The position numbers and the translations under genes were made by a program. Below the pieces are notes generated by a model. That model saw only the letters and a list, made by a program, of their open reading frames with translations, was not told the origin of the DNA and searched no databases. Positions 3,359-33,858 of a DNA stretch of 64,000 nt are shown one piece after another. The DNA is from Mytilus trossulus (Eukaryota): contig NC_086378.1 of assembly GCF_036588685.1 (NCBI RefSeq), positions 6,758,001 to 6,822,000 on the forward strand. Reading direction: 5' to 3'. How positions within the stretch are numbered: position 1 is the first letter of the stretch; each line of letters opens with the position of its first letter.

Positions 3359-4134
3359 AAGAAAATTGGTACCGTTAATTTTATTACAGACTCTTCCCAT
3401 AACTGCATTATTATAATCAAAGACAATAGGTGAACAAGTAATGATTTAGTGAAGTGTAATCCTATTTTAAAGGATGCAGCTTCAGCAAATCTAATTGATT
3501 AAATTCTACGGGAAGACGAATTTCTACTTCTGTGGAAATCATTTCTAAAATATATTACAGAAATATGCTGAATAAAGTAAGACGTGTACACATTTTACTG
3601 TTTTGACCACATGACTTATTTGAATTAAAAATGCAATAGTTATCTCTCTTCAGATTTTATATTTTGACTTTTTTCAAACCTCATTTTGATTTAGTAAGTT
3701 AAAACAATCTCTCTTAATAAACCTTTGATATGGATTGAGTGAAATGACTGCGTAGTAATTGGTCCATGTGTTTACCAGTAACTTGATTACCCTAAAATCT
3801 TGCTGTCAATAAAATCACCCAGAATATAATATGATTTGAATTGCAGATTGTGTCAATTTTTCTACAGCATCTATTTCCACAATGTCTGTATATTAAACGA
3901 GCAAAATATGCATTTAGTCTGTGCTTCCCCTTCAGGGTACAAAGTGTGAGGCTGTTATAAGTTTAGATAGGTTGATTATGTCAATTAGTTTCATTTTATT
4001 GGAAATCTTTGATATAATATCCTTGTTGTACGTGTAAGTCTACAGTAAAAAGAGTTTGTTTATGAAGTAATAAATTTTACATGTATAATTATCATAGATA
4101 TAATTAAATAGCACATAACTTATCTTTATTACAG

Positions 4135-6154
4135 AATACACAAGTTGTTTGTCTTAGTATTGTGCTGTTTAAGCAACACTGACTGTTTGCCTGATTTGGA
4201 ATATATCTATAACCAGTATGCTGCGACATGTGGCTTTCAGTTTTGTAATGGAACCAGTTTATCGCTGCCATATTATGATAGAGATTTAACAGACATGTAT
4301 TCGGTATGTCCAACATGTAGTTGCGATAGATGTCGTCTTAACGAAAATTGCTGCCCAGACTTAGCATTACCTAAATATAAGGAAATTTGTAAAAATGATG
4401 TTATATATCACCCGAAAAATCTGCTCTCAAAATATTATTATTCAATGATCGAAACATGTCCCAATGGCACCGATAAGAAACTGATTCAACTGTGCGAAGC
4501 TGACACAAAACTTGCTTCTGATCTTTCATTGGTTCCGGTAATAAGTGTAACAAATACAACCTATAGGAATATTCATTGTGCTTTGTGTCATAATGAAACA
4601 AACACCGAGTCATGGACAGTAGATATCAATTGTATAGAATTTGCAGATTTTAATTTCTTATCAAGTTTCGAGGAAATAACAGATATGGTTATAGAAAAGA
4701 AATGTACCGTTCGTTATGTCCAAAAAAACGTTCATTACAAGGCTCAGGAATGCCAACCAATAAGCGAAGAGCTGATTGGTAGATGTAATATAACTGGTAC
4801 CTGGCAAAACTATGATTATGATATTGATTGGGCTTGCAATTCATTTCAACTTCCGTTCGATATTTATAAAAGCGTGTTTTGCCTTATTTGTAATCCTCCG
4901 CGGAAATCTAATTCCACCGTCATTTCATCTTGCATTGAGAGTGACGAGAGACTATTTAAATCTAAAGCCCTGGACGAAGCATGCATGGTTTATAATACAA
5001 CTGGCGTGACAATCCCATTTAAAAATGCTTTTTGTTACTTGTGTAATAGACAAAATGATTTGTATCAATATGCTGATATCAAAGGAGATGTATCATTTAT
5101 GTTTGATAAAAATAATGAACAAATAATATACAAAATAGTTAATGCAGATTTCAATCCTGATTTCTTAGGAAATTATCTAACACGTTACATCAATAGATCT
5201 GGTATCCATTTGAATGCCGGGGAAAAACTAGCTTCTTCACTTCTGTATTACGACAATGACCGGCAAGTCAATATGTCTAGTTTGATGTCCCTTTATTCCC
5301 AATCATATGGCCCCGAACTTTGCGGAATCTACAATTTCAATCGAGAACACTTAATCGGTAACCGGTCATTGCAGTGCTCGTGTTTTGCCAACTGTTCATT
5401 GAATAGAGATTGTTGTATAGATTATGAACTTGAGCAGCACTTGGAGTGTTCCGGAGGAAATGTTATTTCAAGTATGTGTCGTTATGCTGACCAAGGAATG
5501 AATGCGTACTGCTATGAGCGCGGCGAGTTGATGTATGATCTCCCAGTGAGCAAAAGTGGCTCGAAAAGTCATTTCGGAAATATATTTTGTGCAATGTGTG
5601 CAGACGATTCGCTTAACATGCAACCTTTCAATGTTATGACAGTTGCACGATTTTTTCAACCATGGGATATAGAAATTAATTGTTTAGCCACGAATTCATT
5701 GCCGACTTATTTTCAATTCTTCGTAACTTCAATCTTAGAAGTTGCTCACCAGAGAAACTGTGGTGTTAGATATAACCCAAATCAAAGAAATCGAGTGTTT
5801 TGTGATGACACAGAAAAGACAATAAAATCTTGCAATATTTCAGGTACATGGCCTCGGTTTGATGAAGATGTCGCCTGGGCGTGTGAGAAACTGAATACTA
5901 CGTATCTCAAAAGTTATAGAGGTTATAAGAATATATTCTGTACACTTTGTAATCCTGATTTAGGATTCCAAACATCCACTTCAACTACACCAACTGAAGC
6001 AACAACCCCTTCTCATCGTGAAAATATAGCCTGTACATCATGTTCTTACGCGGGAGGAGTTGCAACTACATTCAGGACTTTGTTTCTTATACCCACAGAT
6101 ACGGAGGTGACAATTACCGAGTGTAAATATGGCCAAGTATTAGATAAACTTAAT
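4135..6154 (+). CDS. Large coding exon of a class B (secretin-like / Methuselah-like) GPCR: signal peptide plus Cys-rich ectodomain with two tandem somatomedin-B-like modules
   Basis: ORF 4145-6166. Acceptor ttattacag|4135 and donor aat|gtaagt at 6154/6155 (phase 0). Hydrophobic N-terminus LFVLVLCC. Repeated motifs CSCxxCxxxxxCCxD, Y/FxNxxCAxC and CNI(T/S)GTW...WAC each occur twice, with a Thr-rich stretch near the end. The start codon is probably in a short upstream exon (candidate ATG 3908, uncertain). Confidence 0.85.
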
Positions 6155-6268
6155 GTAAGTATGTAAATATTGCGGGATCAATTTTATTATCGTGAAATGA
6201 AACGGCTCTATATTACATCCAAAATTGTTTATTTTAGCAAATACAAAATCAATAAAAAATAGACAATT

Positions 6269-6657
6269 CCAAACAAGTACAAAGTTGAAGAGCATTGAGG
6301 ATCCAAAATTCCAAACAAATGTGCCAAATACGGCTAAGGTAATCTATGCCTGGGATTAAACAATCCTTAGTCTTTTTATAAATTCAAAGTTTTGTAAACA
6401 GGAAATTTATAAAAATGACCACATTATTGATAAACTACTGGGCTGGTGATACCCTCGGGGACGAAACGTCCACCAGCAGTGGCATCGACCCAGTGGTGTA
6501 AATAGTTTATTAATTTAGTTCACCAGACGCGCTTTTCGTCTACATGAGACTCATCAATGAAGCTCATATCAAATAATAAGTATAAAGCCAAACAAGTACA
6601 TAGTTGAAGAGCATTGAGGATCCAAAATTCCCCAAAAATGTGCCAAATACGGCTAAG
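6269..6657 (-). mobile_element. Partially tandem retrozyme-like unit (~320 bp period) with a degenerate hammerhead at 6521-6565
   Basis: ccaaacaagtaca...ggctaag occurs at 6269 and again at 6588. Minus-strand hammerhead TTGATGA gtc..gac GAAA agcgcg TC (first core C mutated). Confidence 0.7.
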
Positions 6658-7579
6658 ACACAGGGGTCCATGAACTCGTTTTTAAGTTAAATCGGTTTGA
6701 ACGATAAAATCAGTCGAACACTGCATGTTTTCCCAATAGGTGACTGTTTGACGTCGCGTAAAGAACATTTTTCGTCAGCAACGTCATTATCTCCCCTGGA
6801 ACTGTATCGTATACCCTCAAATCAATAGATGTTTCAGTACTTTTTCAAAATGAAGTGCTTTAATAACCCTTTATTCAAAAACTAATAAAAAGTATGGGTC
6901 ACGGGACATTGTTTAGCGATACAGGTTGTGTAAAAATGTCAGATTGTGTATATATTATGCATAAGAAATCCAATTTCATTTGATAAAAAGAAAAGTACAG
7001 CATACAATTAAATTTATTTTTTAGAAGTTAGCTATTACAGCATGCTTTTAGATGAACAAAATAAAAATAAAGGGTCCCTGAACTGTCTTTTTACTATATA
7101 TTAAAATAGCCCATTATTCAATTAATCAAACACAAATATTGTGGGTTTTTTTAAATAGAAAAAACAGTCGTAAATATGATAAAACACTTAATTTTCTATA
7201 TTTTCATAAGAAGTCTTGCACATGGTTTACAAACTACTCTTTACATTTGGACATTTGATTAAAGATCTATACAAATTATTATATGGCATTTCATTATCCA
7301 AGATGAAGGAATTCAACCGAACCATCTTAAATGGTTAATGTTAATCCGTGGTTTTTCTCTTATAGTAAATGTGTATCCCTCGATTTTAGTGTGTGAAGCA
7401 AATTTGTCTTATTCTCAGTGATTTATGACTTTTGAACAGTGGTACAATACTGTTGGCTGTATGTATAAGTGTAAGCATTCGGTAGGTGTCATAAGATTCC
7501 ATGTCAAAAACTAACGGTCTTGCTATCAATGCAAATTTTCCTCTCTGTAACAGAAATACACATTTTTTTTATTTTTCAG

Positions 7580-9232
7580 AACAAATGTAGAAACGTAACT
7601 TGTTCACCGGGATATGTCCTTGGCAATGCTTCTTGTACCCCATTGCTGCTGATAACTAATCAACTGGGCTATATATTACCTATGAGAATAGAATGCATTA
7701 CAAATCTTGTGGCACATAATAAAATTTTAGAAGACATTGAAAAGGAAATAGAAGAATTCATTAAGAATTACCTAACTGTTGAGAAGGATTTAGATGTGGT
7801 TTCGTCGAACATGGTTACAAACATTTCTTGTGACACCAACGAAACAGCAGGAGTAGAAATATTGGCAAATGTAGAATTCTTCATCGAAGAAAGTGTATTT
7901 AGAAAAGACATTGAAACCAAGCTTATTCATCTAAGTGAAGAAATGGTTAACATCTCTAAGGATGATTTTCATATCAGTCTCAATGTGAGTTTAGATCAGA
8001 GGGCAAGGAATACAAAGGCAATGATAAACAACGCTGCACAGTTTACTGGGATGTGTTATTTATCAAAACCTGATTTAAAACAAAGACGGTCACACAAATT
8101 TTTTACTTTTAGTCACGTGTCTAAGCTCCTTTTATGTCAACAAGTAGACCTGAAAAAAGAAGAAATAATTATAGATTCAACAGCGTCTTCATTCATCATG
8201 TTAAAGTCGACTAATATAAAAATACAGCAAGGGATGTTCAAACTCACAGCAAGTGGGGGAGCAAGAATATGCGTAGATACAATGAAATTGCTTAGAAAAC
8301 CAGAAGTAGGCATTAATTACATAGTCAATACTGTAACGGCCATTGCCTCTGTCATATCCATGATATGTCTCTTTTTGACCTTTGTCACTTATTGTATATT
8401 TCCTAATTTAAGATCCATTCCAGGTAAAAATAACATGTCACTCGTTTTTTCATTTTTCTTTTTACAAGCAGTTTTTACTTTCGGAGCTAGAAAAACTGAC
8501 CATGATGTTTTCTGTAAAGTTTTTGGTATAATTCTTCATTTCTTCCTTTTAAGTTCTTTCGCCTGTTTAAGCGTTTGTACCTTTCATATGTTCAGGGCAT
8601 TCAGTACTATTAACACAACACATGACGCACACCACGAGAAACGAACTATGCTGCTGTATATTTTATATTCCTATTGTACACCAGTTTTTATCATAGTCAT
8701 AAATATAACCGTTACATTATCACAGTATAACGACACAGGATATGGAAAAAGGGAGACAATCTGTTTCCTCAAAAATGCAAATTCAGTAATAGTGTGTCTG
8801 ATAGTTCCTGTGGCAGTAATTTGTGGTTGCAACATAATATTTTTTCTCATGACAATGCGCAAAATAAGCATGACACCAAAAATGGAAAGATCAAGCACCA
8901 ACAAAGCTACCCGTCACAACAGCGTCATTTACATCAAGCTATTTAGTTTGACAGGTATAACCTGGGTTCTGCAGATCATTGATGGTTTCCTGCCAATGAC
9001 GCACCTATCTATAATTATATCTTTATTCAATGCTCTACAAGGTGTGTACATATTTCTATCATATATATGTAACTCCCGTGTAGCGAACATGTACAGGAAT
9101 CTCTTTATGAGGTACACAGAAGATCATGATTCAAATGCTACAAAGAATACTAACATTTCAACTTTTGCAACAGAAAAACATTTGAAATATCTACCTAATT
9201 CTGGTTCTGCCTCAGAAAATACAGTGCTGTGA
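7580..9232 (+). CDS. Terminal exon of the same GPCR: distal ectodomain plus seven transmembrane helices and C-tail
   Basis: Acceptor tttttcag|aac at 7580, phase 0, joins as ...DKLN|NKCRNVTC. Class-B 7TM motifs LRSIPGKN, CKVFGIILHFFLL, YIKLFSLTGITW and FNALQGVYIF. Stop at 9232. The spliced protein is about 1,220 aa. Confidence 0.9.
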   Translation, partial: NKCRNVTCSPGYVLGNASCTPLLLITNQLGYILPMRIECITNLVAHNKILEDIEKEIEEFIKNYLTVEKDLDVVSSNMVTNISCDTNETAGVEILANVEFFIEESVFRKDIETKLIHLSEEMVNISKDDFHISLNVSLDQRARNTKAMINNAAQFTGMCYLSKPDLKQRRSHKFFTFSHVSKLLLCQQVDLKKEEIIIDSTASSFIMLKSTNIKIQQGMFKLTASGGARICVDTMKLLRKPEVGINYIVNTVTAIASVISMICLFLTFVTYCIFPNLRSIPGKNNMSLVFSFFFLQAVFTFGARKTDHDVFCKVFGIILHFFLLSSFACLSVCTFHMFRAFSTINTTHDAHHEKRTMLLYILYSYCTPVFIIVINITVTLSQYNDTGYGKRETICFLKNANSVIVCLIVPVAVICGCNIIFFLMTMRKISMTPKMERSSTNKATRHNSVIYIKLFSLTGITWVLQIIDGFLPMTHLSIIISLFNALQGVYIFLSYICNSRVANMYRNLFMRYTEDHDSNATKNTNISTFATEKHLKYLPNSGSASENTVL

Positions 9233-14950: not shown

Positions 14951-16185
14951 GTAATTAATACAAAAAAATATAAATATATTCATTTTTCAGTGCGATCATT
15001 TTTTTTATTATGAAAATTTACTATTGACAGATGTATTTTATAACCATGTGAATATTGCATACTTTGTATGGTTGAGGGTGCATCTAAGTATGAACACATT
15101 TATATCCTACTTATGTAAAAATATCTTGTCTATCATGTTTTGGGATAAGATTTTTGTTTCTCAGTTCTTACCAGGACCAAAAAAAATGATTCCAAAATCA
15201 TCTTGCTATATCAAATTGCCGTCCCTTTTATATTTCAAGCAACACACGTATTATTTAGTTTTCGGTTTAGTGTCTTGCAATACTTGATGGACAACTTTTA
15301 TATTTAAATAAAGGCAACAGTAGTATACCGCTGTTCAAAACTCGTAAATCTATGGACAAAAAACAAAAATGGGGTAACAAACTAAAACTGAGAGAAACGC
15401 ATCAAATATAAGAGGAGAACAACGACACAACATTAAAATGTAACACACACAGAAACGGACTAAGCATTCGACAAAATCCGATGAGAATAACAAATATAAC
15501 ATCAAAACCAAATACATGAATTTGGGAGGGAAAAGTAGCGTGACCCATCTTATAGTAATGTGAGTTCACACTCAAATATAAGAGAAAGAAAACAAACGAC
15601 ACAACATAAACACAACGTTAAATTGTTACACACACAGAAACGAACTATGATATAACAATAGCCATTTTCCTGACTTGGTACAGGACATTTTTCAAGATAA
15701 AAATGATGGATTGAACAGTGACCTATAGTTTAAAATGGTAGAACAAGACAAACATTTTATTTGCATTTGGAATATTGTATTATTTTATCGAGATTTCCTT
15801 TTTAAAACCCTTTCATTTAATATCAACAACGAATATTCATATGGAATTCTGTCCGTTTTGTAACTCGTTTTTCGTGACAAACATGAACAGTCGTTTCATT
15901 GTTTTATATTAAAAAAGAAGATGTGGTATGATTGCCAATGATATAACTCCCCACAATAGACCAAAATGACACAACTATAGGTCACTGTACGGCCTTCAAC
16001 AATAAGCAAAGCCCATACCGCATAGTCTACTCGGGACAGACACACACACACATAATGCGACTGTGTTAAACAAGTCAGCGGGATCCAAACCCTCCCCTAA
16101 CCTGGGGCAGTGGTATAACAGTACAACATAAGAACGAACTTTATTGTCTATTTTTATTGTTCTTTCCCAGCTAGTTAAAGTTTAT

Positions 16186-16332
16186 AAATATATTAGGATT
16201 CCAAGATTTGTTTTCGTGAACTAAATACCATCGACAAGATAATATTCAACATCTGTGTTTTCCATTGGCTGATACATAATTCTAAAAATAACTTTCACAT
16301 AAATTTATATGTATATCGCTTTTGTTTTTATT
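16186..16332 (+). repeat. 147-bp direct repeat, left copy, flanking the palindrome
   Basis: aaatatattaggattcc...gcttttgtttttatt is identical to 25108-25254 (offset 8922). Confidence 0.95.
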
Positions 16333-19300
16333 ATAAACCTCAGATCTATGTACGACCTCAAATCTGTGTCCGTTTCTCAAATCTATGCCCAATCGTGACG
16401 TCAATCGCTAATCTATGTCCATACAAAATTGTTCGACCTCAAATCTGTGGCCGATTTTTAATCATGACGTCATTCGCAAATCTATGTCCTTAAAAAAATA
16501 ATTCGGCCTCAAATCTGTGGCCGATTTTTACTTGTGACGTTTTTCTCAAATCTATGTCCGTTATAAAAGAAAAGGCTTTAAAACTGTAATGTTTGATTCT
16601 TTTTTAGCCATGCGCAAATTTATGCCCGTCTTAAAATTTCGGCCTTCTAGGTTTTTGTCATTCCCATAGTTCAATATTAATTTGGTGGTAGATCTATGTG
16701 TTTTCCATGTGTGTACAAGAGCTTAAGTATCAGTAAATCTTTCGTTTTATGTTGTACTGCTATACCACTGTCCCAGGTTAGGGGAGGGCTGGGATCCCGC
16801 TAACATGTTTAACACCGCCACATTATTTATGTATGTGCATGTCCCAAGTTAGGAGCCTGTAATTCAGTGGTTGTTGTTTGTTCATGTGTTACAGTTTTGT
16901 TAATTTATTTTACATAAATGAGGCCGTTAGTTATCTCGTTTGAGTTTTTTTACATTGTCTTATCGGGCCTTTTATATCTGACTATGAGGTATGGGCTTTG
17001 CTTATTGTTGAAGGCTGTACGGTTACCTGTAGTTGTTAATGTTTGTGTCATTTTGGTCTTTTGTGGACAGTTGTCTCATTGGCAATAATACCACATCTTC
17101 TTTTTTTATACTAGATAGATTATTTTGCTTGTATTTAAAGAGGGACTAAAAAGTCCCTGATTCAAAATATTGTTTTTTAATATAAAAAAGAAGATGTGGT
17201 GTGATTTTTTTTATTTAAGTACGGTTTTGTATGATTTTTGTTTTGATAAAGTAATATCTCCATGTGTGTGGTTAAAATTATGTGTGTGGATTTTATGCCG
17301 CCTTGAAGAATTCAACTACACGTTTTTTCTAACTAAAAAAAATAAAAGAATTACTATTTGTATGCAACTTAAGCGTACTTTAATTGTCTCTAAATTGTTT
17401 CATATTGCTGTTAAATTGACATTCATACCACATTATCTATTGTATGTTACATTAAATATCAATAAAATCATTCTGAATAGTTAAAAATAAAAGTTACGTG
17501 CTCTATATTTTTAATTAAAATATTTGTGAATCACAATAGAGCATATATCAATTGTTTGGTCTTAGCTGATATCTATTTAGTTCAAATGTGAAACTTGTAA
17601 TTATGTCTTTAATCACAAAAATCTTTCCCCGAGAAGGATCATTCTTTATGTTTTGGCATATTCCTTCTCTCCAGAAACCGGATGTAAACACTGCCGTCCC
17701 TTTGTTCATAGCTGGATTTGTTTTGAATTGCAAATACTCCCCAATAGTAGGAGTGAAGATATCCTGATAATTGTCAGAAAACAGTTCAAGAGGATTTATC
17801 TCTAGTTGACGTTTTTGAAAATAGTCCATCAACCCACTATTCATTACAGATTTTCCTCCAGTCTAAAAAAACAAATCATAAAGCAATTTTAAACCATTTG
17901 TATTAATAAATAAAATATCGACATTAACTTTTTTCGTATAAACCACATTGACACTGATAATGAATAGATACATAAAAAGTAAAAGGATAAGAAAATAAAA
18001 TATTAAATTAACATTTGATATTACTATTTACATATCTACATGTATGACTTACGGGAATAGCATTTTCTTTATCGTTGCTATCATTTACAAAGCGCCTTTT
18101 GTAAAGTTCCTTGTAATACGGACTAGCACCTTCCATGGGATCGAGATTATTTTGCATCTGAAAGTACATTAAGTAAAATATGTGGAGAAAAAAATAATTT
18201 AAAAAGAACATCATTAATTTTACATGATTTTTTTCATTTCGATTAGTTTTAATTCATTCAAAGGTGAAAACATGTAAGACGGGTCAACCTAATTTTTTTT
18301 TAAATTAGCGTATAACTTTTTTTCAAAACACACATAGACTATGTACACATGTGCAAAGTAGCAGAAATATTCTATCATACTAAAACATTACTTACAACTT
18401 CTAAAGGTGCAATATCATTTGTTTCCGTAGTAAAGTATGTATCTCCGGTTTCTGTAACTATATGATCATTTTCCAACTGCCTCCCTTTGTTTGTCTCCTG
18501 AACTTCTTGGTGTTCTTCATTAGGTTCCGACACAATATCCATGGCTTCTTTAATAGAAATAAGTTTAAACAAACAAATTAAATAGTACAGTCGATGGTTG
18601 TGTAACGTCCAGTGGCAAATTTAACGCAAACATATAGAATATTAACACAGTAAATTTAAAATATGCTTTTTTTATATAGAGAAGACCGTTGGTTTTCCCG
18701 TTTGAATGGTTTTTACACTAGTTATTTAGGGGCCCTTTATAGCTTGTTGTTCAGTGTGAGGCAATGCTCCGTGTTGAAGGCCGTACATTGACCTATAATG
18801 GTTTACTTTTTTTTTAATTGTTATTTGGAGGGAGAGTTGCCTCATTGGCACTCACACTACATCTTCCTATATCTATTTACATTTATTTTGCTCATAAAAT
18901 TCAATTTCAAAATTAACTTTGTTTAACTAATATCAGAGCCTTAAAAAGTAAAACCTTTCAGATTACTATTGAAGTAAATAAAGACTTATATTATTACCTT
19001 CAAACGTTACATCTCTGTCATTTATGTTTCTTAACATCTCCAAATTTCCATTTTCATCTTCATTTATGTTACTTTCAGGTAATATTTCACCAATCTCTTC
19101 TTCTTCATTCTCTACATCTAAGTGTGCCTGTGCTAGGAACTTTCTTTCATCTTCAGTTAGGAGCACAAATGGAAGCTATAAAATAGAAACGGTTTTATTG
19201 CACGTAATATTTTCACCTTTACTACAATAGATAAATACGTTATATTTTAATACAGTACATGTATTACTTTGGCATTTTATAATATTTTATGATAATTTAT

Positions 19301-20716
19301 GAATAGAATAGGATGAATTTAGTGTTAAACTTTCATATAGTTTCACAAGATGTGTGTGTGTGTGTTACTTTGTTTGTGTTGTGTTGTGTTGTGTTATGTT
19401 TTTTTTTTTTTTTTTTTTTATATATTTCAGCTGTTTAATTCGCCATATATCTTTAAATAAAGCTGTAAGCTAAGTTTATAGTTACCTGTTCATCAATAGG
19501 TGGTGCAAAGTTAGGTCTTTTAAAGTAAAGTTGATATGGTGTAGAAGGCTTTGTACTTTTGTGTACCCTGTTGTTGTAGTTATAATAAAATTCTGGCAAT
19601 TTTGAAGGCCAGTCTTTTTCTAACGACATCTCTTTTCTAAAATATTCAGTAAGTGTTCTATTAAAGCGTTCTACGCGTCCTTGGCTTTGTGGATGATAGG
19701 GACGTCCATGTATCTGTCTGGTCTTAAAAATTGAAACAACTTCAGCCAAGTTTACATTTGTAAATTCTTTGCCGTTGTCACTTTGTAATATTCTTGGCGG
19801 ACCATACAGATATACATATTTTAAAGTTAGTTCCGCTACATCTTTTGCAAATTTTCCTTTTAATGGACCACCAAATGCCAAGCGAGAAAAGCAATCTACT
19901 ATGTTGCAAATGTAGTTTTAACCTCTGACTGGTGGCATTTTCTTCAAGTCTATTTGCCAACGACTGTTAGCATAAGTTGCAGGAATTGGGCGCCTTAAAA
20001 CTGTTGTTTTGGGAATTTCTACTGCATTGTTACAGCCCTGGCAGTTTACGTTTAATTTAAATAGTACCTTGATGCTTTCTCTAACAACAGGAAATACTGT
20101 ACTTCTTAAACAGTCATAAATTGCCTCATATTTTCTATGGTCTTTCGAGTGGTTTTTGTTAATCAGGTGAATTAATTGCTCTTTGTCTAAACATTTTCTA
20201 TGATTGCTATTTAAGTCTTGAGATTTTTTGTAGATACATTTAGATTCTTGATCATAGAAGTAAAGCGATAAAAACTTTTTTACCATTCTGTCCGAAAACG
20301 GCACTCTCAATTCGTCAACAATTTTTTTTGCTCCCCAATTTTGATGTTCTTCTTTGGCCTTTGCAATCTGTACAATGTACGGCATATCAGCCCAAAACGA
20401 TTCTGGATTTGGATCCTTTGAAATACCTTTTTTGCGCTTGTTTGATATAGTGTATCCTTCATTTGGAATAGTGTCCTGCTCCGCCATCATTCTTTTTTTG
20501 CTATGACGTCATATACTTGATGACGTTTTGTTATGTTTAACGTCGATGAAAGGACATAGATTGGAGCCAAAAATGGCCATAGATTTGAGTAAATAAAGGA
20601 CATAGATTTGAGACAATACAGGACATAGATTTGGAAAATCTATGACGCAATATAAAAAGGACATAGATTTGGGGAAAGGACATAGATTTGAGGCCGGACA
20701 TAGATTTGAGGCTTAC
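16332..20716 (-). mobile_element. Ginger-type DNA transposon, left (inverted) arm of the palindrome
   Basis: Reverse complement of 20722-25108, with all ORF pairs identical. Termini are imperfect (outer TAT instead of TGT; inner terminal base missing). Confidence 0.9.
17548..20490 (-). pseudogene. Mirror copy of the five-exon transposase
   Basis: Identical translated ORFs on the minus strand, with the same stop at 19918-19920. Confidence 0.88.
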
Positions 20717-20720
20717 TATT

Positions 20721-23700
20721 TGTAAGCCTCAAATCTATGTCCGGCCTCAAATCTATGTCCTTTCCCCAAATCTATGTCCTTTTTATATTGCGTCATAGAT
20801 TTTCCAAATCTATGTCCTGTATTGTCTCAAATCTATGTCCTTTATTTACTCAAATCTATGGCCATTTTTGGCTCCAATCTATGTCCTTTCATCGACGTTA
20901 AACATAACAAAACGTCATCAAGTATATGACGTCATAGCAAAAAAAGAATGATGGCGGAGCAGGACACTATTCCAAATGAAGGATACACTATATCAAACAA
21001 GCGCAAAAAAGGTATTTCAAAGGATCCAAATCCAGAATCGTTTTGGGCTGATATGCCGTACATTGTACAGATTGCAAAGGCCAAAGAAGAACATCAAAAT
21101 TGGGGAGCAAAAAAAATTGTTGACGAATTGAGAGTGCCGTTTTCGGACAGAATGGTAAAAAAGTTTTTATCGCTTTACTTCTATGATCAAGAATCTAAAT
21201 GTATCTACAAAAAATCTCAAGACTTAAATAGCAATCATAGAAAATGTTTAGACAAAGAGCAATTAATTCACCTGATTAACAAAAACCACTCGAAAGACCA
21301 TAGAAAATATGAGGCAATTTATGACTGTTTAAGAAGTACAGTATTTCCTGTTGTTAGAGAAAGCATCAAGGTACTATTTAAATTAAACGTAAACTGCCAG
21401 GGCTGTAACAATGCAGTAGAAATTCCCAAAACAACAGTTTTAAGGCGCCCAATTCCTGCAACTTATGCTAACAGTCGTTGGCAAATAGACTTGAAGAAAA
21501 TGCCACCAGTCAGAGGTTAAAACTACATTTGCAACATAGTAGATTGCTTTTCTCGCTTGGCATTTGGTGGTCCATTAAAAGGAAAATTTGCAAAAGATGT
21601 AGCGGAACTAACTTTAAAATATGTATATCTGTATGGTCCGCCAAGAATATTACAAAGTGACAACGGCAAAGAATTTACAAATGTAAACTTGGCTGAAGTT
21701 GTTTCAATTTTTAAGACCAGACAGATACATGGACGTCCCTATCATCCACAAAGCCAAGGACGCGTAGAACGCTTTAATAGAACACTTACTGAATATTTTA
21801 GAAAAGAGATGTCGTTAGAAAAAGACTGGCCTTCAAAATTGCCAGAATTTTATTATAACTACAACAACAGGGTACACAAAAGTACAAAGCCTTCTACACC
21901 ATATCAACTTTACTTTAAAAGACCTAACTTTGCACCACCTATTGATGAACAGGTAACTATAAACTTAGCTTACAGCTTTATTTAAAGATATATGGCGAAT
22001 TAAACAGCTGAAATATATAAAAAAAAAAAAAAAAAAAAACATAACACAACACAACACAACACAAACAAAGTAACACACACACACACACATCTTGTGAAAC
22101 TATATGAAAGTTTAACACTAAATTCATCCTATTCTATTCATAAATTATCATAAAATATTATAAAATGCCAAAGTAATACATGTACTGTATTAAAATATAA
22201 CGTATTTATCTATTGTAGTAAAGGTGAAAATATTACGTGCAATAAAACCGTTTCTATTTTATAGCTTCCATTTGTGCTCCTAACTGAAGATGAAAGAAAG
22301 TTCCTAGCACAGGCACACTTAGATGTAGAGAATGAAGAAGAAGAGATTGGTGAAATATTACCTGAAAGTAACATAAATGAAGATGAAAATGGAAATTTGG
22401 AGATGTTAAGAAACATAAATGACAGAGATGTAACGTTTGAAGGTAATAATATAAGTCTTTATTTACTTCAATAGTAATCTGAAAGGTTTTACTTTTTAAG
22501 GCTCTGATATTAGTTAAACAAAGTTAATTTTGAAATTGAATTTTATGAGCAAAATAAATGTAAATAGATATAGGAAGATGTAGTGTGAGTGCCAATGAGG
22601 CAACTCTCCCTCCAAATAACAATTAAAAAAAAAGTAAACCATTATAGGTCAATGTACGGCCTTCAACACGGAGCATTGCCTCACACTGAACAACAAGCTA
22701 TAAAGGGCCCCTAAATAACTAGTGTAAAAACCATTCAAACGGGAAAACCAACGGTCTTCTCTATATAAAAAAAGCATATTTTAAATTTACTGTGTTAATA
22801 TTCTATATGTTTGCGTTAAATTTGCCACTGGACGTTACACAACCATCGACTGTACTATTTAATTTGTTTGTTTAAACTTATTTCTATTAAAGAAGCCATG
22901 GATATTGTGTCGGAACCTAATGAAGAACACCAAGAAGTTCAGGAGACAAACAAAGGGAGGCAGTTGGAAAATGATCATATAGTTACAGAAACCGGAGATA
23001 CATACTTTACTACGGAAACAAATGATATTGCACCTTTAGAAGTTGTAAGTAATGTTTTAGTATGATAGAATATTTCTGCTACTTTGCACATGTGTACATA
23101 GTCTATGTGTGTTTTGAAAAAAAGTTATACGCTAATTTAAAAAAAAATTAGGTTGACCCGTCTTACATGTTTTCACCTTTGAATGAATTAAAACTAATCG
23201 AAATGAAAAAAATCATGTAAAATTAATGATGTTCTTTTTAAATTATTTTTTTCTCCACATATTTTACTTAATGTACTTTCAGATGCAAAATAATCTCGAT
23301 CCCATGGAAGGTGCTAGTCCGTATTACAAGGAACTTTACAAAAGGCGCTTTGTAAATGATAGCAACGATAAAGAAAATGCTATTCCCGTAAGTCATACAT
23401 GTAGATATGTAAATAGTAATATCAAATGTTAATTTAATATTTTATTTTCTTATCCTTTTACTTTTTATGTATCTATTCATTATCAGTGTCAATGTGGTTT
23501 ATACGAAAAAAGTTAATGTCGATATTTTATTTATTAATACAAATGGTTTAAAATTGCTTTATGATTTGTTTTTTTAGACTGGAGGAAAATCTGTAATGAA
23601 TAGTGGGTTGATGGACTATTTTCAAAAACGTCAACTAGAGATAAATCCTCTTGAACTGTTTTCTGACAATTATCAGGATATCTTCACTCCTACTATTGGG

Positions 23701-25108
23701 GAGTATTTGCAATTCAAAACAAATCCAGCTATGAACAAAGGGACGGCAGTGTTTACATCCGGTTTCTGGAGAGAAGGAATATGCCAAAACATAAAGAATG
23801 ATCCTTCTCGGGGAAAGATTTTTGTGATTAAAGACATAATTACAAGTTTCACATTTGAACTAAATAGATATCAGCTAAGACCAAACAATTGATATATGCT
23901 CTATTGTGATTCACAAATATTTTAATTAAAAATATAGAGCACGTAACTTTTATTTTTAACTATTCAGAATGATTTTATTGATATTTAATGTAACATACAA
24001 TAGATAATGTGGTATGAATGTCAATTTAACAGCAATATGAAACAATTTAGAGACAATTAAAGTACGCTTAAGTTGCATACAAATAGTAATTCTTTTATTT
24101 TTTTTAGTTAGAAAAAACGTGTAGTTGAATTCTTCAAGGCGGCATAAAATCCACACACATAATTTTAACCACACACATGGAGATATTACTTTATCAAAAC
24201 AAAAATCATACAAAACCGTACTTAAATAAAAAAAATCACACCACATCTTCTTTTTTATATTAAAAAACAATATTTTGAATCAGGGACTTTTTAGTCCCTC
24301 TTTAAATACAAGCAAAATAATCTATCTAGTATAAAAAAAGAAGATGTGGTATTATTGCCAATGAGACAACTGTCCACAAAAGACCAAAATGACACAAACA
24401 TTAACAACTACAGGTAACCGTACAGCCTTCAACAATAAGCAAAGCCCATACCTCATAGTCAGATATAAAAGGCCCGATAAGACAATGTAAAAAAACTCAA
24501 ACGAGATAACTAACGGCCTCATTTATGTAAAATAAATTAACAAAACTGTAACACATGAACAAACAACAACCACTGAATTACAGGCTCCTAACTTGGGACA
24601 TGCACATACATAAATAATGTGGCGGTGTTAAACATGTTAGCGGGATCCCAGCCCTCCCCTAACCTGGGACAGTGGTATAGCAGTACAACATAAAACGAAA
24701 GATTTACTGATACTTAAGCTCTTGTACACACATGGAAAACACATAGATCTACCACCAAATTAATATTGAACTATGGGAATGACAAAAACCTAGAAGGCCG
24801 AAATTTTAAGACGGGCATAAATTTGCGCATGGCTAAAAAAGAATCAAACATTACAGTTTTAAAGCCTTTTCTTTTATAACGGACATAGATTTGAGAAAAA
24901 CGTCACAAGTAAAAATCGGCCACAGATTTGAGGCCGAATTATTTTTTTAAGGACATAGATTTGCGAATGACGTCATGATTAAAAATCGGCCACAGATTTG
25001 AGGTCGAACAATTTTGTATGGACATAGATTAGCGATTGACGTCACGATTGGGCATAGATTTGAGAAACGGACACAGATTTGAGGTCGTACATAGATCTGA
25101 GGTTTACA
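20721..25108 (+). mobile_element. Ginger-type (Ginger2/TDD-like) DNA transposon, right arm, with complete TGT...ACA termini
   Basis: 5' TGTAAGCCTCAAATCTATGTCCGGCCTCAAATCT and 3' reverse complement TGTAAACCTCAGATCTATGTACGACCTCAAATCT form an imperfect TIR. Subterminal CAAATCTATGTCC arrays at both ends. Integrase gene present, with no gag, RT or LTR. Confidence 0.9.
20948..23892 (+). pseudogene. Five-exon integrase-like transposase (~584 codons) with one in-frame TAA
   Basis: Exons 20948-21952, 22265-22442, 22893-23044, 23283-23387 and 23578-23892, all GT-AG and phase-compatible. HHCC finger (HSKDH...CQGC), WQID, SDNG-x-HGRPYHPQSQGRVER with exact D-35-E spacing. TAA at 21518-21520 is followed in frame by NYICNIVDCFSR. 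Confidence 0.88.
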
Positions 25109-25254
25109 AATATATTAGGATTCCAAGATTTGTTTTCGTGAACTAAATACCATCGACAAGATAATATTCAACATCTGTGTTTTCCATTGGCTGATACATA
25201 ATTCTAAAAATAACTTTCACATAAATTTATATGTATATCGCTTTTGTTTTTATT
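25108..25254 (+). repeat. 147-bp direct repeat, right copy
   Basis: Identical to 16186-16332. Confidence 0.95.
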
Positions 25255-28200
25255 GTAAACCACAGATATTCACTTTATTGAATATCGAAAAAAATATTCC
25301 GACACGGAAAACCTCTGACCTTTAAATAGCATAATAGTATTGTTTTTAAATCATTCAGAGATGGAAGATGTTATGATTTTTTTAAGTGCACAATCTATGA
25401 TAATGTTTGATTGGAATTTTCTGCAATAATAATTTTGAAATTTTAAGTAAAGGAATATATCTCTCTCATGCTAAGCTCTTATCTATTGTCGAGAATTGAC
25501 TATACTTTAGGCATTTTTATGGTTTTAGTAATTCCTCAACGTTTGTTACAGATGTTTTATTCGCAAAAGTGGGCCTCGAGCTTTACTGAATAGATAAACT
25601 CATCACAGATACCATATCATAGATAAATAACTTTAGACGATAATTATCGGGTCCGTGTAACACTTATCAATTCAAAGTTTTAAAAAGTTTTGAAATTTTA
25701 GATTTTTGGAATTTTGATCAAAGTTTTAAAATATTCAAATTTCAAATTGTGTAAAAGTTTGAAATTTTAAAATTTTAGCCAAATTATTAAAATATTAAAA
25801 TTCAAAATATCGTTAATAAATTTGATAGTTTAGGAATTTGATCAAACTTTTAAGATACTAAACCTAACGTGCAATTTTGATTATTTCACTTTTTGAAAGT
25901 TTGATTTTTTAAAATTTTTGATTAAAATATCAAAAATAGAAAAGGGGCGAAAAGAGGGGTACCTGTAAACACTGATGTAAACACGCCTCTGATAACAATT
26001 ATTCTTAGTTAAAAATAAATAGCACGAAATATATAAATCATTTTTAATTACAAAACAAATAATGAAAAGAAGAAGTTTTTTTTTTTTATAAAACATATTA
26101 GACATCACATAGGATAACAGTATCCTGATATTTTAAGGTTGTACACTCTCAAAAAAAATTAGTTAAACCTATTTACACTGGAATCAAATAGGTTGATTTA
26201 AATCTCTTATATAAGGTTAGCGTTTTAGATAAATAATTCAGAGCTATTTGGTGTTCCCAGTGCCCAACATTTAGAAAAAAACAGTTAAAACTGGCCAACT
26301 CGCAGTAAACCAAATAGTATTTTTCGCCTTTTTGACGTTCCTGATGAAGGTAGACCCAGATATAAAAGCGCTACAACTTTAAACATTTTGTTTTCTTTTT
26401 TTATCGATTGCATAACGATAATATACTGCCGTTTATGATTTATTTCAGTTCCAAGAAATGATACAAAAGGAATACTTAATGTATAGCGTAAAAAGTAAAA
26501 TCACAAAAATACTGAACTCAGAGAAAAATCAATACGGAAAGTCCATAATCACATGGCAAAATCAAATAACAAAACGCATCAAAAACGAATAGACAAGAAC
26601 TGTCACATTCCTGACTTGGTACAGGCATTTTCAAATGTAGAAAATGGTGGATTAAACCTGGTTCTATAGCGCTAACCCTCTCTCTTTAATAACAGTCTCT
26701 TCAAATTCCGTTATATTTACATGATGTGTTAAATAAACAGTCACAATTAATAAAATAGTCAAAATATGGGTATATCAGTCATCATCGCATAACAATTTTA
26801 AAAGGGACAATTTAACAGAATACAAAAACATTTATCTACGAACACATGGATTGACTTGAGTGTCTGACGTCATAAAATTTGTATACGTCACATAAATTTG
26901 TCGTTCAATGTGCATACAAACAGTTGCGTCGCAATGAACGTTGCGCTAGGCATGCTTCAGCTGGCCCCTCGACACTAAAGGTTACTGGTTCAGTGATTAT
27001 AGACGTCATACTAAACTCCGAAATATAACAATAAACTAAAATTAAAATCACACAAGACTTAAAAGGACAGAGGCTCCTGAATTTGGACAGGCGCACAAAT
27101 GCGGCGGAGTTAAATACGTTTCGTGAGATCAAACCCCCCCCCCCGTTATACCTCTAGCCAATAAAGAATGTAAAACATACAGTAATACGAACAGTAAAAC
27201 GCACTTGAAAAGGAAATACAAGTCCTATGTCAGAATAGGAAACAAAAGAAACTTATCAAAATGACAATGATTATAAATTACAAAAAGGACAGCTATAATA
27301 AAGCTAGCAGTTACTGCCATACGCCAGCTCCAGACCTCAATTAAACTAATTGAAAGGTTATGCCTTCATTATGCACACTCTCTCCCTGTTGTATTTATTG
27401 CTAATTTGTTCCGGAACATTCATGAAATATTTGTCACTGGCAACAAAAAGTCGATAATTCAGAATAGGTTGCAGGTTGTTTACGTACAAATTACGAAGAA
27501 ACTTAGAATTCAACTCCCTCGGACAAAGTAGCCCTTATCGCTGGATTGTGATATGTTTTAACTTCACTTTGGTCAAACATCTCTTCAATTGTTTCGGTTC
27601 TGATTTTTCTTGACTTTCAAATTTCAGTTTTCAGCGTTCCGTGCTCAAATAAGAAGATACAAATACGGAACATTTATATCCCTTAATAATTTTTTTTTAT
27701 TTCTGGTCTCTTGTGGAGATTTGCCATATTGGCAATAATGCCACATCTTCTTTTTTATATTTAGGACGACACTGGGACCTGTACTTTTGCATCGTTTAAA
27801 TCGCTGAAATTCTTGCTTTTTCGTCTGCTCATTTTCAAACATATATTATTTGCAGTAATAAAATAAAATAGTTGAAGTATTCAGTACTAAGAATATCTTA
27901 TAGGTCTAATCTTAGGACAGTGTCGATAAACATGCCACAGTTATCATAATGTTATTATGTAACACATGTATTTTAATTTAAATGAATAAAAGTCTTTTAT
28001 TTACTCGCGTTTACATTTTAGGCATTAAGCTTAATGCCTGCATACAATTTTCAGGATTTAAGCTTAATGTCTAACATCATTTAGGCAACCGACTTCCTGC
28101 CTAGGCGTTAGCTTATTGCCTAGGATTTAAGTTTAATGCCTAATTTCTCTTATTGCCGCTAACATATATATATATATATATATAAAGATCACTATAATAA

Positions 28201-28434: not shown

Positions 28435-30558
28435 TTACACAATAGAAAATGCATAGTTTGCATTCAATCGTGATTTAAATTTTAAAATAAAATGTTTTTC
28501 CTTGACTTCTCGTGTAATGTCACAACCCATATTCATTTTATAAAATGGGAATATTTTAAAAAATCCCCCTCCACATTCGTCTAAATGTTTGCTTAGGGGG
28601 ATTTTTCTGTATTGTGGCTGCCGTATATGTTGTCTATGAATGCGCACTCTTTCTGTTACACTGTTCCCTGTTTGGCCGATATAAATTTCCTGGCAACCAT
28701 TACATTTAATGCAATAAATTAAATTCTCGGATTTACAGGTAATGTCTTCGTTGGTAAAAAGTGATAGACCATTAGGTATGTCCATTCCCTTGCCAACATG
28801 GATATACGGACATGCCCCACAACGACTATCTCGACATTTTGACACACTGAATGTTCTTTTTTGGTCGAATCGTGCTCGGGTCAATAGTCGTTTAAGGTTT
28901 TGTGGTTGCCGTTTACTTTGTAGAAGTGTTTCTGTATTTATTAAACGGCGCATCTTTTCATCCTGACCAAGAATAGGTAAATTTGCCTTTGCAACGGGAA
29001 TAATTTTAAAGTTCCGTGGATTATGTGTAATAACGAACGGTATTTTATCGTTGTTATTACTCTGCTCCTCGCAGGTGGAGCGTAGTTGGTTGGTTGGAAT
29101 CTGTTTTGCCATTTGAATTCCCCTTTCTATTAAAGTCTCTGGATAGTTTTGCTTGATCAAAAATGATTGTAGTTCCTCTAGACGGTCTTCTCTCAAATGT
29201 TCATCCTCGACTACTGTACATATTTTTCTTGCTAAACAATAGGGGATATTCCTTTTGGTATGAGATGGGTGGCACGAATTAAAATCTAAATACTGATGAG
29301 TATCAGTACCTTTGTAAAAAATATCTGTTTTAATTTCAGTGCCATCTTTAATAACAAGAATGTCTAGAAACGGTAATTGGTTGAAATTTTCATCCTTCGT
29401 AAATTTTATGGAGGTATGAAGGTTATTTAGTATGTCCGAAAATAGTTGGAGTTCTTCGTCGGATTTGTTCCAGATAATGAAGCAATCATCAAGGTATCTT
29501 TTCCATGATAATTCAAATTCACTTGCAAATTCAACTCCAAAATTATTTTCAACTTCTTGATACAGTCTTTGTTCAAGGAAGCCCATGACTAATGTTGCAT
29601 ATGTTGGTGCAAATTTTGTTCCCATTGCTGTCCCCCGATGTTGCAAATAGTTCTTGCCATTGAAATAGAAAGAATTGTTTTCAAGAATAAGTTTAGTTGA
29701 ATCGAGTATAAAGTCAACAGTGAATCGATTTGGTATTGCATCTCGATGTTTTGCAACCCAATATTGTATTGCCTCTATTCCTAAATCGTGTGGAATGTTC
29801 GTATATAGGCTTGTGACATCGAAGCTTACTAAACGAGCGTGAACCGGTGCTATTTTTGGCAGGTGTGAGAGAAAATCTATATCGTCTCTTATATAGCTCG
29901 GTACATATTTACATAATGGTTTCAAAATTGTGTCTAAAAAGTTGCTTAGTCTGTGAGTGGGACTTGCTGGACCTGCAATGATGGGTCTAAGTTTAAGATC
30001 CGTCGGTTTTTGCACTTTTATGTATTCGTTTTGCTGAGAATTAATAGCCGATTGGATCTCCTTTGATTTATGGATTTTTGGAAGGCCATAAAAGTTACTC
30101 GTTTTCCTTTCGAAATTTTTCAAGTAATCATACTCTTTTTCCGTAGTGGCCGTTGTGTATTTGTTCAGTACGGTATTCATTCTTCTCTTGACTAGATGAT
30201 CTATATTATCAGGAATTTCTGAGTAAAATGTCGAATCATTGAGTTGTTCTTCAACTTTAATTCTATAGTAGTCTGAATCCATTATTACTATTGCCCCACC
30301 TTTATCGGCCTGCTTAATTATTATGCTTTTATCGTTTCTTAGATTTTGGAGTGCTGACTTTTCGCCCTTAGTTAAGTTGTGGTTGACTTTAATTGGTGTA
30401 AGTGGGTAATTGGACAAATTTTCGATATAGTCATCTAAACACTTGTTTCTTCCGGTATTTGGAATAAAGGTAGATTTGTTTCTTACTAATGAGTTGTCCT
30501 CCTCACTTTCTTTATCCGCGAAATATTCAGTGAGTCTCAATCTTCGACAAAATTTCAT
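28435..30558 (-). CDS. Penelope-like reverse transcriptase + GIY-YIG endonuclease
   Basis: FYGLPKIHK, LRPII, SFDVTSLYTNIP, GTAMG, RYLDD, LPFLD. Cys-rich linker CRDSRCGAC, then NLIYCIKC..C..IYIGQTG..R...H. About 700 uninterrupted codons. Confidence 0.95.
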   Translation of the reverse strand: MKFCRRLRLTEYFADKESEEDNSLVRNKSTFIPNTGRNKCLDDYIENLSNYPLTPIKVNHNLTKGEKSALQNLRNDKSIIIKQADKGGAIVIMDSDYYRIKVEEQLNDSTFYSEIPDNIDHLVKRRMNTVLNKYTTATTEKEYDYLKNFERKTSNFYGLPKIHKSKEIQSAINSQQNEYIKVQKPTDLKLRPIIAGPASPTHRLSNFLDTILKPLCKYVPSYIRDDIDFLSHLPKIAPVHARLVSFDVTSLYTNIPHDLGIEAIQYWVAKHRDAIPNRFTVDFILDSTKLILENNSFYFNGKNYLQHRGTAMGTKFAPTYATLVMGFLEQRLYQEVENNFGVEFASEFELSWKRYLDDCFIIWNKSDEELQLFSDILNNLHTSIKFTKDENFNQLPFLDILVIKDGTEIKTDIFYKGTDTHQYLDFNSCHPSHTKRNIPYCLARKICTVVEDEHLREDRLEELQSFLIKQNYPETLIERGIQMAKQIPTNQLRSTCEEQSNNNDKIPFVITHNPRNFKIIPVAKANLPILGQDEKMRRLINTETLLQSKRQPQNLKRLLTRARFDQKRTFSVSKCRDSRCGACPYIHVGKGMDIPNGLSLFTNEDITCKSENLIYCIKCNGCQEIYIGQTGNSVTERVRIHRQHIRQPQYRKIPLSKHLDECGGGFFKIFPFYKMNMGCDITREVKEKHFILKFKSRLNANYAFSIV

Positions 30559-30573
30559 TAGATTTATTAGTAA

Positions 30574-30608
<35 letters not shown>

Positions 30609-32657
30609 AAAACCTCCCTCATTGAAGACTAGAACAACCTTAATTGGGACACCATGCATTCAGTATTCATACCGTACCAAAAAAATATTAACTAAACTAT
30701 TTGATACAAGGCAATATAATTATGATCGTCATACAACCGATAAAAATGAAACGATGACGTTAAAAATTACGACCAACGCGCTTTTCTGGATCAACCTTCT
30801 TAGGGAACGCTGAAAGATGAATATTTAGGGCCAACAACTTACAAAGAATAGATTAAAACTTGAAAGATGATCGTTCATAATGTACATGGAATGATATATT
30901 CTTTGGCCAACATGATTGCAGAAAGTAAAAAGTCGTAGAGCAAAACAGAAAAATTTTAAATCAAAAGAGATAATACACTGTGTATTGAGCCTTTTTATTG
31001 CTTAGAGTTCAATAGGAAATATATATACATGTTCAACCTAATCATACTATTTGAACAACTGCGAGTTGTTCAGTTTTTATTGTTACTCCTGTTTCTCCCA
31101 AAATATGGATGCTAGAAAACCAGCAAGTAAAATGGCCAATATCAGAGCCGTACGTCTTGTTTTAAAATGGATTCTCTTCTTTTGAGAAATATTTATTTTG
31201 TAATCCAATTTTTCAACGCTTACAACTGTCTGTCTGTGGTTTTATTTTATACATTAACTTTTAAGTATCAGTAAGTTTTCAATTCATATTGTTTTGTTTC
31301 GTTCTGCTTTTAATTGTATTCGCTTTTTACGGGTACCCCTCTTTTTGCCCCTTTTCTATTTTTGATATTTTAATCAAAAATTTAAAAAATCAAACTTTCA
31401 AAAAGTGAAATGATCAAAATTGCACGTCAGGTTTAGTATTTTAAAAGTTTGATCAAATTCCCAAAATATCAAATTTATAAACGATATTTAGAATTTTAAT
31501 ATTTTGATAATTTGGCTAAAATTTCAAAATTTCAAAACTTTTACACAATTTAAAATTTTGATATTTTAAAACTTTATTCAAAATTCCAAAAATCTAAAAT
31601 TTCAAAACTTTTTAAAACTTTGAATTGATAAGTGTTACACGGACCTTATCGAAATGCACATCTAGTTTATTAAAACTTTTACCGGTTTTTTTTATATTTC
31701 AATTAGTATGATCAATGTTAGTCGCAAAAGTGATAGCACTAAACTTTCTTTCAATATATCACTCTTTGATAATTATAAATATAGGATAGCCTCATTATCT
31801 AGGAGGACCCATTAATAATAAAGGTCATCAAGAAGAAATAACTCCCAAGACTATAGATATGTTCTTACACTTGCGTTCACTGCATTGTAGATCAATAGGC
31901 GATTAGATTTGAGTTGAATGATTCAATCAATTGCTTTCACGCGCTAAGTAGTAGCACAGTAGAATTTTGTTGAGATGTTGCTATATTAATTATTTAGCTT
32001 TAATCTAAACTCTCTCATCTTTATTAGTTAAATTCCACTTCAGGAAAAACAAAATACATTTAACAACAGCTAATAAGTCCATGATTCATTTCCAAATACT
32101 GGGAAAAAGCACAATCCTTTATATATGTATGGTTAGATAATAATATACATTCAACAGGCATTCATTTCACGTACCAAGAAAAGCCCTTCGAATTGTTCTG
32201 ACTCAAGCAAGTACGTAAAAGGAAAGTGAAATCCTCTTTCAGATAGAAATACTGAAATGGTAATGTTCTCAAAGTCACCAGTCAGACACACAGTGTGTTA
32301 AGCTCATCCATCTTAGGTAGTTGTAAAAGTTTTAGAAATAATACAAACCTTGTATGATGGAGTCCTAATCGAGTACTTTCATGATTATTATTGATCTCTG
32401 TCTTTAACACACTACATTTTGGTAACAACTTCATGGTAAAAAAATAGAATATCAAAAAATAAAGAACAGTATAAAACACAACATAGAAAACTAAAGACTA
32501 TGCAACACTAATATAACCAAAAACGTAGTAACATGTCTGATAAATTACACTCTATTGTGTAAATCTTAATTCATCATGTATTCTCCACTGTTATTGAACA
32601 GAGGTCGCTTGGATATAAACATTCACGTTAATTTGTATTACCCTAACTATCTTTCAG

Positions 32658-32902
32658 ACGGTAAACAAAACAAATGTATAATTAAGAACGTTGCTCTGAA
32701 GAAAAAAAGCAACAAAGCTCATGGCATCTGAAAACACATTCCTGGGGAAATTATGTGTGCTGTGCATCTGAATATGCGAATGATGGAAATCCAGCAACCT
32801 ACTCACATACCAACCATGACAATTTACCATACTGGTGGGTAGATCTAGGAAAAGTGTATGATATAAAGTGGATTGAAATTATAAACAGACCAGATCTTGC
32901 TG
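32658..32902 (+). pseudogene. F-type lectin paralogue 1, exon 2, with a 1-bp frameshift in an A7 run
   Basis: Acceptor ctttcag|, donor g|gtaagt. 245 nt versus 246 nt in paralogue 2. Corrected reading: NVALK..QQSSW..YANDGN..YSHTN..PYWWVDLG..IINRPD. The deletion is at 32702-32708. Confidence 0.8.
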
Positions 32903-33858
32903 GTAAGTTCCGTTGTGCTTAATTTTTTGAGGCCGGATGCAAATTTGCTAGCTATTGATGATACTTAAATATTTTTTCATTTTGAAAAGAGATCATGGTG
33001 TCTAAAAGTATTAAATTGCGATTATATGAAAACAAATTTAAGGACATTATTTTTCCCCTCTTTCGATCCACAGTTTTTAACTATTTCAGACTCTATTAAG
33101 GTTTTAGTTATGGCATGCATGATAAACAGTAAAATAAGTGTCATCTTTACAGAAACTGTAAGATATAAACAGTACAATAAAGAATTTATGAATGCTTTTC
33201 GTGAATATGTTATGTCGTGGTTATGCCAAAACCTTCATTCATCCTGATTGAAATTTGTATTTTGTTAGACATTTAAATTCGCATTTCAATTGGTATCCAA
33301 CGAATAATTATGTATGACTTGAATATGTGTCCAAGGGATCAAACAAATTAAAATAAGAATCATATCTATCAGTAAACCCAATTATTGGAATAAAAGAAAA
33401 CAGTACATAAAAGAAAAGGTACATAAACGAAAAAGTACATTAAAGAAAGTGTAATAAAAATCAGTACACGAAAAATATAAACGATGATACAACAGAGACA
33501 CAGACGAAGAACACATTAAAACAGTATATGTTTCATGTCTTATGTTTTATCAGACTACGATCATTTCATCTCCATCATTTGCAAAATGTAATTTTCTGCT
33601 ATGAAAACTTCGGACATTAAATGCGGTTTTTTTTTAAATCAGACATTTCTTCCCTCAATCATGATGGCAAAACAATCTCAATGAACTTATTCGTAACAAA
33701 TATCATTTAAAAAAACTTATGTATCATGTTTGACACGGATATGTACTGTCTTGATAAAAAAAAATATTGGTTTAGGGACTAAAGAAACTTTAAATGCTCT
33801 AAACTGTTATTATACATTTGTTTTATATTTTTTCATGTTTAATGAATACATATTTTGT

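Follow-up and report, generated by a model that had tools for sequence, protein, structure and literature searches.

A head-to-head inverted pair of a Ginger2-type transposon in Mytilus trossulus and its possible origin from a single insertion by template switching

Results and Discussion

Layout of the locus

The window analyzed, a stretch of 64,000 nucleotides of Mytilus trossulus contig NC_086378.1 in which position 1 is the first letter, contains a head-to-head inverted pair of one 4.4-kb transposon, here called E, arranged in the order L - X - rc(E) - TATT - E - X - Y, where L and Y are the left and right flanks. The pair is the sole long inverted repeat of the window (99.9% identity over 8,778 bp) and comes with one near-exact direct repeat, X, of which the window holds two copies, both at this locus; the window contains no N. 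The features are as follows.

16180 to 16186, forward strand: end of the left flank L (GTTTATA), matching the 3' end of the element at 6 of 7 bases
16187 to 16332, forward strand: left copy of X, 146 bp, starting with AATA and ending with TATT (16329-16332)
16332 to 20716, reverse strand: left arm rc(E), with G>A at 16333, which changes the terminal CA to TA, and a 5' TIR without its terminal A
20717 to 20720, no strand: centre spacer TATT, the reverse complement of the first four bases of X and also equal to its last four
20721 to 25108, forward strand: right arm E, 4,388 bp, TGTAAGCC..GGTTTACA, with intact TGT..ACA ends
25109 to 25254, forward strand: right copy of X, 146 bp, identical to the left copy; its AATA at 25109-25112 is the inferred TSD
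25173 to 25186, reverse strand: weaker TIR-like 14-mer inside X, 11/14 to the 3' TIR and 12/14 to the mimic in Y, present again at 16251-16264
25254 to 25270, forward strand: TIR mimic at the start of the right flank Y, 13/14 match, followed by TATT at 25267-25270

To the left of the locus, two long forward-strand frames at 4112-9232, one cysteine-rich with 684 aa and no Pfam match and one of 585 aa with a secretin-family 7TM domain, probably belong to a single adhesion-type GPCR gene, whose end lies some 7 kb to the left of the palindrome. To the right lies an open 727-aa frame on the reverse strand (28435-30618) with a reverse transcriptase and a weak GIY-YIG match, which we take to be a Penelope-like retroelement. 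An AT-rich repeat of 270-320 bp with 8-bp internal periodicity occurs in four copies and in both orientations (25643-25918, 31349-31645, 33852-34175 and 37159-37475), and repeated exon-like frames at 38869-39162, 50765-51079, 32702-32980 and 54785-54991, which presumably resemble F-type lectin domains, suggest a tandem-domain gene.

The element and its transposase

Judged by its features and by the names of its homologues, E is a Ginger2-type integrase DNA transposon of Mytilus. It is a defective, broken element, and the predicted transposase has an in-frame stop in both arms. The available part of PMC2836005 gives TGTNR termini, an HHCC finger with a DDE core and a 4-bp TSD as Ginger2 traits. 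The termini of E read TGTAA at each end of the right arm, in agreement with the TGTNR rule of Ginger2/Tdd, and its imperfect TIR (50/59 ungapped, about 170 bp with gaps) lies within the Ginger2 range of about 50-180 bp. Subterminal repeats of the form AAATCT(A/G)TG(T/G)CC are also present. The predicted gene is given below.

20948 to 23892, forward strand: five-exon transposase gene of E, exon limits approximate, from tblastn
about 20948-21952, 22265-22442, 22892-23044, 23283-23389 and 23578-23892, forward strand: transposase exons, from tblastn

The predicted transposase carries an HHCC zinc finger (H114, H118, C150 and C153) and a DDE core (D181-D238-E274; Pfam rve, E 9e-16), while the in-frame TAA stands at 21518-21520 (codon 191) in the right arm and is mirrored at 19918-19920 in the left arm. 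Neither GPY/F nor YPYY was present in the three sense frames of E or in any of the four homologues checked, which separates E from Ginger1. The closest proteins are from Mytilus (130 matches among 801 candidates; best named 96%), and one 90% protein cluster has 17 members, the 15 listed of which come from four Mytilus species. The homologues bear the names SCAND3-like and KRAB-A domain 2-like, and genes so named derive from Ginger2 according to the portion of PMC3575427 available. The inferred insertion site, AAATAT (16186-16191), fits an RTATAY target at 5 of 6 positions, a consensus which, together with the 4-bp TSD, is described from Nematostella elements in the sections at hand of PMC2836005; PMC10045372 and PMC10294476, each available in part, serve as background for TSD lengths and for how scarce Ginger is in molluscs. 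Each arm has a small 8-bp hairpin immediately upstream of where the transposase starts (20505-20527 and 20911-20933). Inside the element, an intron and the 3' region hold very high-copy short repeats (16653-17189 and 18622-18979, with mirror counterparts in the right arm), and similar units occur in the flanks.

In searches beyond the window, the element patterns found no match in viral contigs and none in prokaryote genomes, the four matches of the TIR pattern in metagenomes were rejected as chance (none of the four had further blastn/tblastn similarity to E), and a protein scan of prokaryote genomes for the transposase left none of 39 candidates confirmed. A second dimer was considered on the basis of two adjacent identical 297-aa Mytilus trossulus gene models (P0125); these match the exons of the present element apart from boundary overruns, so that they probably represent this same locus and were not counted. 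A bacterial promoter scan was set aside as irrelevant to a mussel.

Identity and age of the arms

The two arms show no internal substitution in about 4,384 bp. Just three differences separate them: G>A at 16333, an AC microsatellite (19351) that varies by a 2-bp indel, and the lack of the terminal A ahead of 20717. The preliminary description was right that damaged termini are confined to the left arm, the right arm keeping TGT..ACA intact. To place this identity in context, assembled contigs of 4 runs among 24 listed (two studies) were aligned to 15400-20750, the left half of the locus. For the count of divergence 23 of 32 listed pieces were used, three flank pieces and six from diverged relatives being left out, and over 7,556 bases the related copies in the four runs showed 61 differences from E, or 0.8% with gaps disregarded. 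Between independent copies of such age about 35 differences would be expected, and the arms show none internally. The third base of the stop codon differs in the main (best-matching) contig of all four runs, while both arms keep the stop; a 73-bp subterminal unit (16428-16500) is skipped in the contigs of all four, the window copy having an extra repeat unit; and eight extra bases at 18642 are present in three of the four, both arms sharing the state of the window. Since the arms are identical and share these private lesions, one arm was copied recently from an already aged copy. The four runs may stem from other Mytilus species, their flank pieces being 3-5% different, and "private" may then mean lineage-specific. 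Read depth at the element ends was several times that of the interior in the four runs, which hints at shorter relatives and is not a copy number.

In run X1, a contig of 217 nt (with 10 other letters and 4 gap letters) joins L straight to X. It looks like an empty allele, and it ends at 16313, 19 bases before the X|Y junction, so that it is uninformative there. Among the joints and loose ends listed for the four runs, in which high-copy repeats are dominant, none fell at 16333, 16340 or 20717. The rows listed, next to which stand a further 470 variant rows, 1,327 joints and 5,821 loose ends, contained no single-copy allele, no X|Y junction and no TSD of the family. This lack of read support for the centre and the left junction among the rows listed, together with the 99.9% identity of the arms, is what speaks for an assembly or library artefact, in which empty and filled haplotypes were fused via a fold-back chimera. 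We regard such an artefact as unlikely, because a fold-back chimera would turn at a random place and would not exit by a second junction, whereas here both junctions lie within 1 bp of the element ends, no N is present and the flank resumes forward.

The junctions and the TIR mimic

The preliminary description had read the right arm as ending in ACA (25106-25108) followed by AATA (25109-25112), and the spacer at 20717-20720 as its reverse complement, TATT; the sequence agrees on both points, and all of its coordinates proved correct. By itself the spacer match is weak, with p about 0.012 for a given A/T 4-mer. A stronger signal comes from the host-side sequence at 25254-25268, which had been reported to match the 3' TIR and does so at 13 of 15 positions (13 within the first 14), with a probability of 1.2e-6 for at least 13/15 at one site. 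It is the sole non-element site with three or fewer mismatches to the 3' TIR on either strand of the 64-kb window. As had also been noted, the mimic and the left-arm start share one register (16332 = 25254), and this equality of register points to base pairing. Sites as good as the TIR-like 14-mer inside X (11/14) numbered 7 in 109,790 positions elsewhere. The 6/7 match of the L end to the element end has p 0.0025. Together with the following A, the GTTTATA of L and the damaged left-arm start make up a perfect 8-bp inverted repeat; it is the base change at 16333 (G>A) that lets the left X pair with the L end as a perfect 8-bp stem.

Since X ends in TATT (16329-16332), direct TATT copies flank the left arm (16333-20716), and the mimic is bracketed by TATT (25251-25254 and 25267-25270, with 12-13 bp of TIR between). 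The chance of each TATT coincidence, ahead of the left arm and behind the mimic, is about 0.04. Because TATT brackets it, the mimic may be an old footprint instead of host DNA. These repeats speak for two transpositions with no template switch, in which a reverse copy would have entered the final TATT of X and an end-targeted or hybrid-end insertion would have set the 5' end of E beside it and duplicated X, the mimic being an excision footprint. A footprint origin would also abolish the prior of near 3e-4 for a 13/15 mimic to occur by chance within 250 bp of an insertion, a prior that counts against a template switch, although such an origin fits the template-switch explanation too. Two transpositions need three junction edits, with a terminal base lost at each end of the left arm, and integrase-type enzymes require a terminal CA. 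The TATT site matches RTATAY at only 3-4 of 6 positions, and the mimic has a 12/14 mirror inside X with the same odd base, a post hoc observation. IS30 is known to insert beside its own ends, which would favour this course, but in the available part of the same paper its end-targeting yields left-right junctions only and not 5'-5' (PMC9333248). On balance we consider two transpositions unlikely.

Several other readings of the flanks were tried and rejected. Y was considered as the end of another element, but it shows no similarity past 15 bp and the window has no partner end for it. The reading of X as a dispersed repeat is met by just two copies in the window. For a longer X-Y palindrome, 589 of 2,559 random pieces reached an equally good local score, which is thus no better than chance. 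TATA as the TSD is missing at the right junction and at the centre.

Origin of the pair

We give a probability of about 0.5 to the reading that one repair event turned a single insertion (L-AATA-E-AATA-X-Y) into the pair, scoring jointly a version initiated by a transposase cut and the version of the preliminary description, in which an empty homologue served as template; the two predict the same alleles. Within this reading, a transposase cut at the 5' end probably began the repair and microhomology template switches completed it. E would first have inserted at AATA, aged as a single copy and acquired its stop codon. Transposase from another copy would then have cut the 5' end of E only, one-ended cutting by a Ginger transposase being an assumption. 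The L-AATA end would re-prime at the E|X junction through a 10/11 match and copy X, or L-X would be supplied by the empty homologue. At the mimic, the new strand would cross to the 3' TIR, about 145 nt off on the other strand, and E would be copied backwards through the 5' TSD, writing TATT, after which the new strand would be joined to the cut 5' end, one base being lost. The GTTTATAA of L may have served as template for the G>A at 16333.

The proposal of a template switch with a reversed spacer holds up in that it needs the fewest junction edits, two (1+1+0 from an AATA-flanked single copy) in comparison to three for a full second insertion with a TATT TSD (2+1+0) and three with a TTAT TSD (1+2+0). 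In the rebuilt single-copy allele the TIR pairs with the mimic at 14/15, the loop between them being 143 nt. Such clusters number 13 in 18 kb, this one included, and the pairing supplies the outer stem of the minimum-energy DNA fold (-12.1 kcal/mol, calculated without a shuffle control); pairs of 13/15 occur 69 times. As pure slippage the proposal does not explain the turn at the 5' terminus, where the L-AATA-5' TIR junction forms no DNA hairpin (0.0 kcal/mol) and pairs at 9/14, and where inverted repeats as strong and with short loops number 544 in 18,171 bp. Slippage alone would not pick both element ends, and for this reason we infer that the 5' end was cut. Given that cut, the repair can do without an empty homologue, since L plus AATA matches the end of E plus AATA at 10/11 and so restores the L-X junction; the empty allele as template becomes optional.

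Other observations bear on the single-event reading in both directions. The direct joining of L to X in the contig from another sample counts for it, and template switches at interrupted inverted repeats of 2-14 bp are documented in the available part of PMC10766183. According to the same sections, yeast junctions favour loops of 40-80 bp (PMC10766183), which the 143-nt loop exceeds. Also counted against it are the missing A at the centre, which the template-switch model does not predict, and both TATT coincidences, which it leaves unexplained.

The outer ends of the pair can be read in another way, in which a ready-made inverted dimer was integrated by one end, the intact right end being joined by transposase and the mutant left end by host repair at a 13/14 microhomology, with X as a 146-bp "target duplication". 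One outer end is indeed intact and the other CA-mutant (TA for CA), microhomology is present only at the mutant end, and the duplication of X is long and exact. The arrangement resembles aberrant one-ended retroviral integrations; no paper on one-ended retroviral integration of this kind was found in the literature searched. The dimer reading turns the spacer, as the reverse complement of the start of X, into a coincidence of 0.012 and leaves the origin of the dimer unexplained, and we hold it to be rather improbable. We give similarly little credence to a strand-transfer reading, in which a Ginger2 transposase would join one end to a point four bases outside another end, like the enzymes of IS3/IS30 in copy-out/paste-in, so that the centre would be a fossil strand-transfer product; the enzyme would be drawn to end-like host motifs, three of which lie in and around X.

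The layout would also follow from an ODIRA-type inverted amplification without transposase, either through a dimeric circle (E, X, rc(E), TATT) recombining with an empty homologue within X or as an inverted triplication minus its first copy. A single crossover in X would yield exactly the observed arrangement, and circles recombining with a homologue have been proposed, as the available text of PMC10766186 indicates. Against this, the proximal junction has no usable inverted repeat (9/14, no hairpin and 544 equals in 18 kb), its landing on the terminus is unexplained, a replication origin within 4.5 kb is required, and the crossover must fall in 146 bp instead of 4.4 kb. We find this origin most improbable.

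Significance

The locus is an unusually legible case of a known class of transposon accident. The four flank bases between the 5' ends, the intact strand-transfer end and the microhomology end give concrete predictions of the cut sites of the enzyme, and no mechanistic study of Ginger transposition was found in the literature searched. A near-perfect 4.4-kb palindrome is unstable and, if read through, would be a source of hairpin RNA. If the strand-transfer reading were true, Ginger2 would transpose by way of end-to-end junctions and generate full-length palindromes of itself, which would be natural "killer" loci in an animal. As a single locus without read or population support, the case is an anecdote that leaves general understanding unchanged.

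Comparison with known systems

With Ginger2/Tdd, as described in the available part of PMC2836005, E shares the termini, the TIR range, the HHCC finger and DDE core, the absence of GPY/F and YPYY and an AT-rich target. The difference is that the locus holds two copies joined head to head, with a 146-bp duplication at their borders in place of a 4-bp TSD. A fused Ginger product like this one was not found in the literature searched, whose cover left out most subscription papers.

Comparable inverted transposon duplications are known from maize, among them the Mu killer. The Ac killers are inverted duplications of a DNA transposon that arose by aberrant transposition with replication and repair; such duplications can give hairpin RNA and in maize make silencing RNA. 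According to the sections available, the Ac killers are composed of two fractured 5' halves whose TIRs lie on the outside, with a TSD of the normal 8 bp (bioRxiv 10.1101/2020.01.07.897926). The inverted transposon duplication is common to both, although the locus here is known from DNA sequence alone and comprises two copies of full length whose 5' TIRs lie at the centre, with no TSD on the flanks. Where Ac killers have outer ends joined by transposase with a TSD of family length, here the 146-bp repeat flanks the pair and the left outer end is a microhomology junction.

In ODIRA and DUP-TRP/INV-DUP, as at this locus, a junction arises at a short interrupted inverted repeat already in place and retains its spacer, as far as the available parts of PMC10766183 and PMC10766186 go. 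The locus equals an inverted triplication of the single-copy allele minus the first copy; it differs in having two copies and not three, with both junctions on transposon ends and a centre without a real inverted repeat. The distal junction pairs at 14/15 in the rebuilt allele, and the proximal one at 9/14 without a hairpin, short of the inverted repeat that defines ODIRA.

IS30 dimers have a 2-bp spacer in a left-right IR-IR junction, according to the part of PMC9333248 available. With IS30/IS3 dimers the locus shares two ends abutted over a few flank bases, here the 4-bp spacer as the inferred flank, whereas its junction is 5'-5', 4 bp long and lacks one terminal base. The locus works like the maize inverted duplications and the IS30 dimers, yet departs from each in a defining feature.
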